NCBI GenBank assembly: GCA_000004695.1
Contig: CH709167.1
Location: 1 to 2,308 of the forward strand
Direction of reading: 5' to 3'
Length of the DNA: 2,308 bases
Origin: Dictyostelium discoideum
Lineage: Eukaryota
Of the stretch, positions 1-2,308 are shown in pieces. The position numbers and the translations under genes are program-made. Position 1 is the stretch's first letter. Each line of letters starts with the position of its first letter. The notes beneath the pieces were generated by a model. It ran no database searches. It saw nothing but the letters and a program-made list of their open reading frames with translations, and had not been told where the DNA came from.

Positions 1-262
1 TTAATCTGATTTCGGACCCTCCGGATTTGAAATGGGAATTGGGTTTGGCATCAGCTTGAAGTTTGGAAGCAGATGGACTTTTAATCCATTTACGACTTCT
101 TGACAAAAGTTTGGAAGACCCAATTCTTTCCAAACTTGTTTGTGGTGGAACAGACGTCCACCTACTGGTAAGTTTACTTCTTGTTCTTCTGAAAACGGTT
201 GTTGGTACCGTTGGAAGACTTGGTATTGTTGCTACCTGATGCAACATTACTTGGTGATCCAT
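1..262 (-). CDS. Minus-strand open frame from the ATG at 262 to the window edge (87 codons, no stop): MDHQVMLHQVATIPSLPTVPTTVFRRTRSKLTSRWTSVPPQTSLERIGSSKLLSRSRKWIKSPSASKLQADAKPNSHFKSGGSEIRL…. It may be spurious.
   Basis: A stop-free run of 87 codons is unlikely by chance (about 0.5%). However, the composition is basic and S/R/K/P/T-rich, the codon usage is mixed, and the ATG lies only 20 bp from the nearest TATA-like element. The region has a repeated TTGGAAG(AC) motif at 61-70, 111-120 and 211-220, which may keep frames open. Confidence 0.2.
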   Translation of the reverse strand, partial: MDHQVMLHQVATIPSLPTVPTTVFRRTRSKLTSRWTSVPPQTSLERIGSSKLLSRSRKWIKSPSASKLQADAKPNSHFKSGGSEIRL

Positions 263-321
263 TTTTAAGAAAATAAAAACGTATAAATAGTGGCACTAAA
301 AACTAAAACAATTTGATTTAT
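261..321 (+). repeat. Copy 1 of a 61-bp exact direct repeat (atttttaagaaaataaaaacgtataaatagtggcactaaaaactaaaacaatttgatttat). With an 8-nt indel it extends to the shared 'ggaattcc' at 330-337.
   Basis: It is identical to 2105-2165. It contains TATAAATA at 282-289 and lies about 140-200 bp upstream of the ATG at 458. Confidence 0.9.
282..289 (+). promoter_or_regulatory. TATA box (TATAAATA), candidate core promoter for the gene starting at 458.
   Basis: It is a consensus TATA element about 170 bp upstream of the ATG on the coding strand. The intervening sequence is AT-rich with no ATG in a good context. Confidence 0.4.
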
Positions 322-457
322 TTTATTTGGGAATTCCTCCTATATATATTCAAGATACACACACACACAAATTTTATACAAATAATTATTTCTCTTTATT
401 AATTTTTAATATTATTTTTTTTTCTCATATTATAATTTTAGATATCAACAATAAAAT

Positions 458-574
458 ATGTCTACCACTGTTAATAATAATGAAGCCTCTAGTAGTAGTA
501 CCTCTGCCTCTAATAGCGCTGAATCCTTTGATTTAAGAATGAAATCAATGGAGGATCAAATCAACAACAATTGA
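458..574 (+). CDS. N-terminal segment in frame 2 (MSTTVNNNEASSSSTSASNSAESFDLRMKSMEDQINNN*), 38 codons, ending at a TGA at 572-574.
   Basis: Apart from 1031 and 2291, this is the only true ATG with good context upstream of the long ORFs. Its Ser/Asn-rich composition is typical of a yeast N-terminus. Frame 1 is simultaneously open from 532, so a single T gain at 'aattg' (to 'aatttg', 569-573) would fuse the two segments. Confidence 0.4.
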   Translation: MSTTVNNNEASSSSTSASNSAESFDLRMKSMEDQINNN

Positions 575-1092
575 ATAATCATACGACACCACCATCATCA
601 CCCAACATTACAACACCAATAACTTCAGCAGCAATAACCAACACAATAAAGAAATCATTAGGAAAAATTAAAACTGATGATACCGACCACCAGTTGTTAC
701 ATGGTAGCTTCTCTTCTGGTTGTAAAGTCTGTACAACTAATCAAGGTATCCTCTATGGTATTGAGGAAGAAAAAGAAAACCTGATGTTCAAATTCATTGG
801 ATCTTCACCAAACAAGCCAGCTGGAAGTACTTTTGCCAATACTAGCTCCAGAGAAGATGTTCAAGTTATGTGTATCAAGAGATATGGTATTATCGTGTCC
901 AAAGATATTGGTTCAACTATTTATCAATTGGCAAGAAGTAATAATACCGAAACCGAAACCGTCTTAGATGATCTCATTGAAACAGGAAAGTTCGACGAAG
1001 AACTATCAAGATTAGTCTCCTGTGTAACCGATGGAATTAATGGTATTATTTCAACTTGGAATGAAAGTAGAACAATTAGAGTTTTCCAATAA
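571..1092 (+). CDS. Main frame-1 segment of the hypothetical protein, 173 aa. Frame 1 is open from 532 and has no ATG of its own; the track start is TTG.
   Basis: This is the longest ORF in the window and has yeast-preferred codons. It is probably continuous with the 458 ATG segment after a 1-nt frame correction. I recognise no domain. Confidence 0.55.
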   Translation: MNNHTTPPSSPNITTPITSAAITNTIKKSLGKIKTDDTDHQLLHGSFSSGCKVCTTNQGILYGIEEEKENLMFKFIGSSPNKPAGSTFANTSSREDVQVMCIKRYGIIVSKDIGSTIYQLARSNNTETETVLDDLIETGKFDEELSRLVSCVTDGINGIISTWNESRTIRVFQ

Positions 1093-1387
1093 AGTCCGTG
1101 TTCGTTTATTCATGAAGTTATACAACAAGAAAATTCAACACGAGCTCGCTACCAGTGCAAATGCTGTCTACAATAATTCAATTGGGTGGAATGAATTCAA
1201 ATTGGCTGTACAACAAGAGATTTCAATTGGTGAACAATATAATCTCCAAAAGCTCAAGAAGATGTTAGTCATTTCATTTAATGTCCAAGGTAACGTAAGT
1301 ATTAGTGAACACTCTAAAGCTTTCATAAAAAACGTTAACCAATTAAGAAATACCCAAATCAGTTTCCAAATGACGCTGTCCTGTTAG
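1031..1387 (+). CDS. Frame-2 segment of the same hypothetical protein, 118 aa. Frame 2 is open from 1028.
   Basis: It overlaps the end of the frame-1 ORF by about 60 nt with both frames open. A one-base change in the T run at 1081-1085 ('gttttcc') would join ...TIRV to SNKVRV.... Confidence 0.5.
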   Translation: MELMVLFQLGMKVEQLEFSNKVRVRLFMKLYNKKIQHELATSANAVYNNSIGWNEFKLAVQQEISIGEQYNLQKLKKMLVISFNVQGNVSISEHSKAFIKNVNQLRNTQISFQMTLSC

Positions 1388-1524
1388 GATGGTATTTCGA
1401 GACGTTACCAATCCAAGTAAAGGATTCAGATGCAGCATCTACCATCGTTACTTCAGGAACCAATTTGATAGGAGGAATAGGTAGAAGTTATCAACAAGCA
1501 ATCGTTGGTAACATTAACCTCTGA
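1339..1524 (+). CDS. Frame-1 open stretch of 62 codons (PIKKYPNQFPNDAVLLGWYFETLPIQVKDSDAASTIVTSGTNLIGGIGRSYQQAIVGNINL) that bridges the two frame-2 ORFs. It may be coding, or it may be intron sequence.
   Basis: It is the only stop-free frame across 1388-1480 and has a protein-like composition. It also lies inside the candidate intron at 1295-1574. Confidence 0.25.
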   Translation, partial: PIKKYPNQFPNDAVLLGWYFETLPIQVKDSDAASTIVTSGTNLIGGIGRSYQQAIVGNINL

Positions 1525-1786
1525 TATCGGTAGAAACGAAACCGATGCTACTAACAAATTTTATTCCGTTCTAGATTCTTATGTTCCAGTGAAGGAAGTA
1601 AGAATAAACCAAATACAAAATTATAGATTCAATAATTCCAATAGTCAAGGTCGTGCAGGTGGTTCCAATAATCAAGATGAATCTGATGGTCAATATCTTA
1701 GCAATGGATTCAACAATGGTTCAAGATTTAATAATGGCCAAAGATTTGATAATAACTCAAGGTTCTCTGGTAATCCAAGGTTTTAA
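1505..1786 (+). CDS. C-terminal frame-2 segment (open from 1481), Asn/Gly/Ser/Arg-Phe-rich (…NGFNNGSRFNNGQRFDNNSRFSGNPRF*).
   Basis: This is a 93-aa track ORF whose TTG start is not a real initiation codon. It ends at a TAA at 1784-1786, followed by an AT-rich terminator-like flank. Confidence 0.45.
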   Translation: MVTLTSDIGRNETDATNKFYSVLDSYVPVKEVRINQIQNYRFNNSNSQGRAGGSNNQDESDGQYLSNGFNNGSRFNNGQRFDNNSRFSGNPRF

Positions 1787-1925
1787 TATTGGCCCAAGAA
1801 GTTCCAATAATTATGATAGAAACTTAAAAATTTAATTTATTAAATTATATTTTATATTAAATATATATATATATATATATTATGAATAACATTTATTTAT
1901 TTGAATTTCCCAAATATTTAAGATA
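1787..1925 (+). terminator. AT-rich 3' flank of the gene, likely the 3' UTR and polyadenylation region.
   Basis: It carries TATATA-type and A-rich elements downstream of the TAA at 1786 (aataattatgatagaaacttaaaaatttaatttattaaattatattttatattaaatatatat). No discrete hairpin terminator is expected in a eukaryote. Confidence 0.3.
1826..1880. repeat. Left arm of a perfect inverted repeat: aaaaatttaatttattaaattatattttatattaa followed by (AT)10.
   Basis: Positions 1826-1876 are the exact reverse complement of 2200-2250 (51 of 51 nt). The arm begins inside the 3' end of the frame-3 ORF at 1833-1835. Confidence 0.85.
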
Positions 1926-1932
1926 ATTTTTT

Positions 1933-1952
1933 AGAATGTTCTAGAACATTCG
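1933..1952. promoter_or_regulatory. Heat-shock element, four perfect contiguous inverted nGAAn units: aGAAtgTTCtaGAAcaTTCg. It is also an 18-bp perfect palindrome, GAATGTTCTAGAACATTC.
   Basis: The alternating GAA and TTC triplets at exact 5-bp phase match the Hsf1 trimer site consensus, which needs at least 3 units. The element lies about 175 bp upstream of the TATA box at 2126. Confidence 0.5.
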
Positions 1953-1958
1953 AAGAAT

Positions 1959-2083
1959 AAAAAATTTTCGAAAGAAAAGTAAAAATTTCGAACCGGCACA
2001 ATGACGCGATCATTGTGTAAGGTCGAAAAACTGAAAAATTCCGAACCGACACTATGCACAAAGTTGTGAAGGGTCGAAAACTC
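1959..2083. repeat. Imperfect tandem repeat of about 50 bp. One partial unit (1959-1980) is followed by two units (1981-2033 and 2034-2083), each starting AAAAATT(T)(C)CGAACC and ending GGTCGAAAA(A)CT.
   Basis: Units A and B align at roughly 70% identity. CG-containing motifs (TTCGAA, CGAACCG, GGTCGAAAAC) recur in a region that is otherwise almost free of CpG. Confidence 0.6.
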
Positions 2084-2104
2084 TTATTTTTTGAGTTTTG
2101 CGAA

Positions 2105-2165
2105 ATTTTTAAGAAAATAAAAACGTATAAATAGTGGCACTAAAAACTAAAACAATTTGATTTAT
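2105..2165 (+). repeat. Copy 2 of the 61-bp exact direct repeat. It extends to the shared 'ggaattcc' at 2166-2173.
   Basis: It is identical to 261-321. It contains TATAAATA at 2126-2133, about 165 bp upstream of the ATG at 2291. Confidence 0.9.
2126..2133 (+). promoter_or_regulatory. TATA box (TATAAATA) in repeat copy 2, candidate core promoter for a downstream gene starting at 2291.
   Basis: It sits in the same sequence context as 282-289. An ATG at 2291 with A at -3 lies 165 bp downstream. Confidence 0.4.
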
Positions 2166-2199: not shown

Positions 2200-2250
2200 A
2201 TATATATATATATATTTAATATAAAATATAATTTAATAAATTAAATTTTT
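2200..2250. repeat. Right arm of the inverted repeat: (AT)8 followed by ttaatataaaatataatttaataaattaaattttt.
   Basis: It is the exact reverse complement of 1826-1876. Together the arms bracket the HSE, the tandem repeats, the TATA repeat copy 2 and the G4 motif. Confidence 0.85.
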
Positions 2251-2263
2251 AATTTATATTATC

Positions 2264-2289
2264 ATATATATATATATATATATATATAT
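2264..2289. repeat. (AT)13 microsatellite immediately upstream of the ATG at 2291.
   Basis: The run is seen directly. Further (AT)n tracts lie at 1861-1882 and 2200-2215, and (AC)6 lies at 357-369. Confidence 0.9.
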
Positions 2290-2290
2290 T

Positions 2291-2308
2291 ATGAAATTTG
2301 GACGACAG
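2291..2308 (+). CDS. Possible 5' end of a downstream gene (ATG AAA TTT GGA CGA CAG = MKFGRQ…), truncated by the window edge.
   Basis: The ATG has A at -3, and GC content rises abruptly after a long AT-rich leader. A TATA box lies 165 bp upstream and the HSE about 340 bp upstream. Only 6 codons are visible. Confidence 0.2.

Follow-up and report, generated by a model that had tools for sequence, protein, structure and literature searches.

Known heat-shock promoters of DIRS-1

The terminal repeats of DIRS-1 in Dictyostelium discoideum are known to harbour an active heat-shock promoter (PMC2685390). Upon heat shock or other stress a 900-nt antisense transcript named E1 is formed and the right repeat has promoter activity, and axenically growing cells do not express E1, DIRS-1 being kept in check by RNAi (PMC3950715). 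Both repeats drive the expression of GFP above the level of the actin15 promoter, the stress-induced E1 being assigned to the right repeat (PMC4482531). The retrotransposon's internal complementary region (ICR) has been described as an 88-bp segment, 33 bp being the complement of the left-repeat start and 55 that of the right-repeat end (PMC7192593). A heat-shock promoter in the terminal repeat is already named in the cited title of Zuker et al. (1984, PNAS 81:2660), and by the title of Cappello et al. (1984, MCB 4:591) the promoter of DIRS-1 is active in S. cerevisiae; Cohen et al. (1984, MCB 4:2332) and Rosen et al. (1983, Cell 35:243) are cited as other sources on the heat-shock promoter of the Tdd-1/DIRS-1 repeat. 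DIRS-1 accounts for 3.3% of the D. discoideum genome and for about half of its centromeric DNA (PMC5006619), and fragments of Skipper accumulate together with DIRS-1 in the centromeres (PMC5633606; PMC5006619).

The window analysed here, i.e. the whole stretch of DNA under study, is an entire unplaced contig of D. discoideum AX4 of 2308 bp and consists of retrotransposon debris, the features of which are collected in Table 1. Locus L001, within a 43.8-kb contig of D. discoideum assembly GCA_054883475.1, has the same sequence at positions 9546-11851 (100% identity), and the context of the window, a DIRS-1/Skipper cluster, can therefore now be recovered. Since fragments of DIRS-1 and a gag fragment are joined in it, the window is a piece of a nested transposon cluster, and the scrambled cluster around the present copy is probably centromeric. 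A short palindromic array in this window is, very probably, the heat-shock element of a promoter that is built into the DIRS-1 terminal repeat, in this case the right repeat of a copy on the minus strand. The feature as such is already known since 1983-84, and its identification here is the re-finding of a textbook trait of the founding tyrosine-recombinase retrotransposon; possibly the only novelty is the lineage-specific spread of the element among the DIRS-1 repeats of Dictyostelium.

Table 1. Features of the 2308-bp window, with positions counted from its first nucleotide
Feature	Position	Strand	Remarks
Inverted internal DIRS-1 fragment	1-263	-	96.6% identical to L002 7179-6919
TATA-segment copy 1, inner 61 nt of a 5′-truncated left terminal repeat	261-321	+	100% identical to 2105-2165
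DIRS-1 5′ leader (322-457) and first 37 codons of ORF1 (ATG at 458)	322-568	+	match to L002
Frameshifted gag fragment of a Ty3/gypsy-type (Skipper-like) LTR retrotransposon	574-1820	+	collinear with L008 and L007
DIRS-1 right terminal repeat (ITR/LTR), ~345 nt, outside-in	1821-2165	+	94-97% identical to six repeat copies of L001/L002
Outer terminus of the right repeat, segment R	1821-1876	+	inverted repeat, 56 nt, 98% complementary to 2200-2255
Heat-shock element, four perfect units and one one-mismatch unit	1928-1952	.	tTTTt aGAAt gTTCt aGAAc aTTCg
Two tandem imperfect palindromic units of ~51 nt, CGAACCGGCACAATGACGCGATCATTGTGTAAGGTCGAAAA and CGAACCGACACTATGCACAAAGTTGTGAAGGGTCGAAAA	1986-2087	+	between the heat-shock element and the TATA box
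TATA box TATAAATA of the repeat promoter	2126-2133	+	predicted transcription rightwards, antisense to the DIRS-1 body
DIRS-1 internal complementary region (ICR)	2200-2288	-	R′ 2200-2255, L′ 2256-2288
Stop codon (2289-2291) and last five codons (...VVQIS, stop) of the tyrosine-recombinase ORF	2289-2308	-	frame -3

A perfect four-unit heat-shock element

Positions 1933-1952 of the window (aGAAtgTTCtaGAAcaTTCg / AGAATGTTCTAGAACATTCG) comprise four perfect, contiguous nGAAn units in alternating orientation, and direct reading of the sequence thus bears out the mismatch-free four-unit array that had been described there in an earlier note on this DNA. The 18-mer at 1934-1951 (GAATGTTCTAGAACATTC) has zero mismatches to GAAnnTTCnnGAAnnTTC, provides the one zero-mismatch match in the window to the pattern GAANNTTCNNGAANNTTC, and is identical to its own reverse complement, in line with the 18-bp perfect palindrome that the same note had claimed. 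The array is slightly longer than first noted, as a fifth unit with one mismatch (tTTTt) is present at 1928-1932. A heat-shock element is expected to contain at least three contiguous and alternately oriented nGAAn units and to be positioned upstream of a core promoter, and both are seen here: the array exceeds this number of units and TATAAATA is found 174 bp past the element, where a spacing of about 175 bp had been given. All that the earlier note describes in the sequence is in fact confirmed. In the early literature, the 1983-85 authors of DIRS-1 are said to have matched bases of its heat-shock promoter to the Pelham consensus CTnGAAnnTTCnAG, and the element in the window includes two overlapping near-matches to this consensus. 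The 18-mer is absent from published papers in a full-text search, and a search of the window against Rfam identified no family.

Up to two mismatches being allowed, the number of matches to the element expected is 0.23. The DNA around the element has a GC content of 16-30% and many simple repeats, and in such AT-rich DNA the array could in principle be a functionless match produced by chance or by low complexity. However, 200 dinucleotide-preserving shuffles of the window gave 0 exact matches, and the D. discoideum loci L001 and L002 (12.7-13 kb) have 3 matches against an expectation of 0.12-0.13. Moreover, most copies of the repeat keep the element although the remaining parts of the repeat differ by 5-15%. 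On the basis of the shuffles, the excess over expectation and the retention among copies we rejected a chance match, the probability of which is close to nil.

The element lies in the right end of a DIRS-1 copy

By its sequence, the segment 1821-2308 is a DIRS-1 3′ end in reverse complement and comprises the right repeat, the spacer, the ICR and the end of the recombinase ORF. The right repeat is the 3′ end, on the transposon's own strand, of this copy, which is on the minus strand and the body of which is to the right of the window. Positions 1852-2165 are 94% identical to positions 5556-5871 of L002, where the copy of the repeat is directly upstream of the leader and of ORF1 (P0007) and includes agaatAttctagaacattcg, with four perfect units retained. 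As this matching repeat directly adjoins the upstream side of ORF1, the element can be placed inside the DIRS-1 terminal repeat. Downstream of P0007, L002 has ORFs with the RVT_1, RT_RNaseH and Phage_integrase domains. Three further right-end copies are 88-95% identical to the window over positions 1824-2308. The left and right copies of the repeat agree up to position 2165 (equivalent to position 321 in the truncated left repeat), after which the left copies proceed into the leader and the right copies into GGAATTCCGACTAAGGGCGGGTGGGATGGGAC.

A right repeat of DIRS-1 is expected to be a repeat of ~330-350 bp that recurs in inverted orientation upstream of ORF1, to adjoin an ICR composed of a 33-nt and a 55-nt part, and to be accompanied by a tyrosine-recombinase ORF that ends just inside the ICR, and each of these is found at the present locus, where the repeat has a length of ~345 nt. 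The pairing of R with R′ in the window (1821-1876 with 2200-2255) agrees with the published 55-nt R/R′ pairing (PMC7192593). The L′ part of the ICR corresponds to the start of the left repeat and has a (TA)n run of variable length; the left-repeat start of L002 (5565-5590) matches positions 2251-2295 of the window. We also note that the copies of this (TA)n run (window 2262-2288; L001 ~7140; L002 ~4310 and ~9535) differ by 10 to 16 nt, and if the ICR templates the repair of repeat ends, such length variation should carry over to the start of the left repeat.

The tyrosine-recombinase ORF, only the last codons of which are in the window, extends past its right edge and comprises 282 aa on the minus strand of L001 (11832-12680). 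It matches the Pfam family Phage_integrase (PF00589) with an E-value of 9.3e-10 and a score of 39 against a cut-off of 27.1. L001 ends 840 nt past the right edge of the window, and the full architecture of DIRS-1 is seen in the copies of L002 and L006.

The earlier note had assigned the element to the promoter of an unseen heat-inducible host gene starting at the ATG at 2291. This ATG is indeed present (2291-2293), and the motif, the TATA box and the ATG occur in the right order and at plausible distances. However, the ATG overlaps the complement of the recombinase stop codon and consequently starts no gene: the plus strand read from it gives only MKFGRQYLRNHQIFHQ followed by a stop, a frame of 16 codons, and when the gene was sought beyond the window in L001, no plus-strand ORF was found to begin at this ATG, the downstream plus-strand ORFs being at most 82 aa in length. 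The opposite strand has the 282-aa recombinase ORF, and the whole block from 1821 to 2308 is a repeated transposon end. Where the promoter of a host heat-shock gene would be followed by a protein-coding gene in the sense orientation, the recombinase ORF is here found in antisense, and on this ground the promoter of a host gene was rejected and deserves practically no credence. Thus, the earlier reading was right in kind, as the array is a heat-shock promoter element upstream of a TATA box, and wrong on the target, as there is no host gene. These observations call for some caution in annotation, as most cases in the D. discoideum genome of a perfect heat-shock element with a TATA box behind it point to a DIRS-1 repeat and not to a chaperone gene, and the ‘ATG’ that comes after both may be a transposon stop codon seen from the opposite strand.

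Promoter parts and predicted transcription

The TATA-box segment GTATAAATAGTGGCAC is identical in the repeats of D. discoideum, D. cf. discoideum, D. citrinum and D. firmibasis, and a variant, GTATAAAAGGCG, is seen in D. dimigraforme. The tandem palindromic region between the heat-shock element and the TATA box folds, as single-stranded DNA, better than shuffled sequences (z = -2.95), and its palindromes have CACAATGA...TCATTGTG cores with CGAACC/GGTCG flanks. These ~51-nt palindromes are missing from the repeats of D. citrinum and D. firmibasis, and one divergent unit is present in D. dimigraforme. They could constitute a further regulatory site.

For the heat-shock element of the DIRS-1 repeat promoter, we envisage that under stress a trimer of the heat-shock factor would bind to the four or five inverted nGAAn units and that the bound factor would in turn activate the TATA-box promoter 174 bp downstream. 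The binding step follows the general model of heat-shock factor action, a search for literature on the heat-shock factor of Dictyostelium having given nothing useful. Transcription would likely start near the inner end of the repeat, at about 2155-2165; such a start fits the sense DIRS-1 mRNA, from which ~300 nt of the left repeat are missing (PMC7192593). In the present copy, the transcript would then cross the ICR and proceed into the recombinase ORF in antisense. This promoter is expected to yield E1, the 900-nt antisense RNA already known to be induced by heat or stress.

Transposon fragments in the remainder of the window

The left part of the window is made of further pieces of DIRS-1. 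The minus strand of positions 1-263 encodes the last 29 codons of ORF1 (...NGSPSNVASGSNNTKSSNGTNNRFQKNKK) with the stop codon at 174-176 and the start of the next ORF (GGRLFHHKQVWKELGLP...), and the corresponding segment of L002 (7179-6919) reaches from the end of ORF1 (P0007) into the beginning of the RT ORF. Positions 261-568 are 95.8% identical to L002 5810-6111, which runs from the end of the left repeat through the leader to the start of ORF1. MSTTVNNNEASSSSTSASNSAESFDLRMKSMEDQINN is identical to the N-terminus of P0007, and the first 37 residues of P0007 (335 aa) and P0009 (283 aa) are the same as those of the window ORF beginning at 458, while the C-terminal end of these two proteins, NGSPSNVASGSNNTK.ANGTNNRFQK.K, is encoded on the minus strand of the window at 174-263.

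In the first copy of the TATA segment, TATAAATA is found at 282-289 and the portion of the repeat due to carry the heat-shock element is missing. The duplication of the TATA segment in the earlier note was correctly recognized, the two copies being identical throughout their 61 nt, and nothing resembling the element is found upstream of copy 1, as had also been stated there. The idea of two differently regulated promoters with a common core, on the other hand, has to give way to two copies of one transposon repeat: copy 1 owes its lack of the element to the truncation of its repeat at 261 and not to a designed regulatory difference.

The gag fragment downstream of these pieces is collinear with L008 7216-8192 (73-79% nucleotide identity) and with L007 6816-7608 (80%). 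In L008 this gag is the first ORF of a Ty3/gypsy-type element of D. cf. discoideum, and a CX2CX4HX4C finger, a DSG protease motif, RT/RNaseH and an rve integrase come after it. The gag frame in the window has at least four frame changes and is ended at 1820 by the terminus of the DIRS-1 repeat (junction 1820/1821). A Pfam search with the ORF pieces of the window found no significant match. The fragment fits Skipper, to which it is assigned tentatively. A frameshift-corrected translation matches only Dictyostelium proteins, including DDB_G0294302, partial (D. discoideum AX4). The ‘frameshifted gene’ DDB_G0294302 is a chimera: 37 codons from the start of DIRS-1 ORF1 give way at about 569-573 to a decayed gag ORF with which they are fused.

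The gene models of two assemblies get past the frameshifts of this chimera by means of invented introns. The first ~110 gag codons (MSTNNNNINNIINNENV...) of L008 recur after the integrase ORF (6990-7260 and 11920-12260), and either the LTR contains the start of gag or a second copy abuts the first. In L001, at 6590-6740, the terminus of a right repeat (ATTAAAAATTTAATTT...) is inserted in another repeat just 3′ of the heat-shock element (...GAACATTCGAAGA / ATTAAAAATTT, with the slash at the junction), an instance of DIRS-1 inserted into DIRS-1.

The element among repeat copies and species

The exact 18-mer is present in about 10-11 of the 14 repeat copies of D. discoideum and D. cf. discoideum. 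Among the seven copies of D. discoideum (L001 and L002, ~26 kb), five are exact over the 18-mer, a sixth is altered at an N position and the last is degraded (GATTGTTCTAGAACATGAG); in D. cf. discoideum (L006-L008), the exact 18-mer is found in 6/7 copies and a 1-nt insertion in the remaining one. The element is thus near-fixed among the copies of the D. discoideum clade. The broken elements are located at L002 ~9205-9225 (GATTGTTCTAGAACATGAG) and at L007 11320-11340 (GAATGTTCTTAGAACATTC), the 1-nt insertion in the latter shifting the register, and these two copies could act as natural negative controls for occupancy or induction.

For a comparison across species, orthologues of DIRS-1 ORF1 (65-71% identity) were taken together with their flanks, and 23 repeat copies were aligned; the sample is small, each species being represented by 3-7 repeat copies from one or two loci, and neighbouring copies may share recent ancestry. 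Three blocks of the repeat are conserved in all species: the first, CCCAAATATTTAAGA, lies upstream of the element, the second is the TATA-box region and the third the inner end, CAATTTGATTTAT. The element itself occupies a variable island among these conserved blocks (window 1928-1952; L003 ~5675-5700; L004 ~5700-5715; L005 ~9270-9310). In all five copies of D. citrinum, it is substituted by TGAATGCCGAAACGACATTCAG, in which the outer half-sites are kept, the central TTCTAGAA is replaced and the units have no valid spacing. In D. dimigraforme, ~24 nt are deleted at the position of the element (5/5 copies), and the three copies of D. firmibasis all have GAAttTTCtgGAG, a weaker element of three units with one mismatch. 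Nowhere in the loci of D. citrinum, D. dimigraforme and D. firmibasis is there an array of three perfect units.

Conservation in the orthologous promoters of related species, which might be expected of a heat-shock element, is therefore not observed; this bears on the age of the element and not on its working in D. discoideum. Its absence from the repeats of D. citrinum and D. dimigraforme implies that it is not needed for the basic promoter or for retrotransposition. From the alignment, the element is either young or easily lost. One might go further and suppose that the perfect four-unit element is a recent gain or sharpening specific to the DIRS-1 lineage of D. discoideum and is tied to the expansion of DIRS-1 or to its antisense/siRNA control, which we consider rather unlikely, the link between gain of the element and expansion being a correlation only. 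If it were true, a stress promoter gained in both inverted repeats could have aided the expansion of DIRS-1, or alternatively, the gained promoter could have aided an antisense/siRNA control that lets the host tolerate DIRS-1. The differences in the element across species could also give a handle on how transposons acquire the stress regulation of their host.

The distribution of the element also bears on the proposal that the palindrome is mainly a structural or recombination site, bound by the DIRS-1 tyrosine recombinase or another dimer, with an incidental resemblance to a heat-shock element. Perfect palindromes are common among the sites of recombinases and dimers, and in one case (L001 6718/6725) a DIRS-1 terminus has been inserted in another repeat, ~5 bp 3′ of the element there. 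However, the palindrome-less repeats of D. citrinum and D. dimigraforme are still found in several near-identical copies beside full-length ORF1 and RT/recombinase ORFs. Further, in the left repeat of L002 a G-to-A change breaks the palindrome and leaves all four nGAAn units intact, as expected for a heat-shock element. The DIRS junction is formed by the repeat termini and the ICR and not 110 nt inside the repeat (PMC7192593), and promoter activity on heat shock has been published (PMC2685390). Judged by the position of the junction, the palindrome-less repeats, the change in L002 and the published promoter activity, a recombinase site is very improbable and was rejected, and the heat-shock element of the DIRS-1 repeat promoter remains our preferred reading.

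Comparison with known systems

The closest described system is the ~350-bp inverted terminal repeat of DIRS-1 (Tdd-1) itself, with which the present locus has in common the organism, the repeat, the TATA box, the ICR and the end of the recombinase ORF. Nothing essential differs from the DIRS-1 promoter as described, the present copy being located in a rearranged cluster beside a Skipper-like gag fragment.

Canonical heat-shock elements, such as those of Drosophila hsp70 and of yeast SSA/HSP82, likewise have at least three contiguous inverted nGAAn units upstream of a TATA box. In contrast to these, the DIRS-1 element is part of a transposon repeat and not of a chaperone gene, and its four units are all perfect and together palindromic. 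The spacing of 174 bp between the element and the TATA box is longer than in the classic Drosophila promoters.

A further parallel is that of ONSEN (ATCOPIA78) of Arabidopsis, a heat-activated LTR retrotransposon in which the heat-shock elements of the LTR are bound by HsfA2. In both cases, the terminal repeat of a retrotransposon co-opts the heat-shock pathway of its host by means of a heat-shock element. ONSEN, however, belongs to Ty1/copia, has direct LTRs and is transcribed in the sense direction, whereas the repeats of DIRS-1 are inverted, and as a consequence the same element drives sense RNA at one end of the transposon and antisense RNA at the other.
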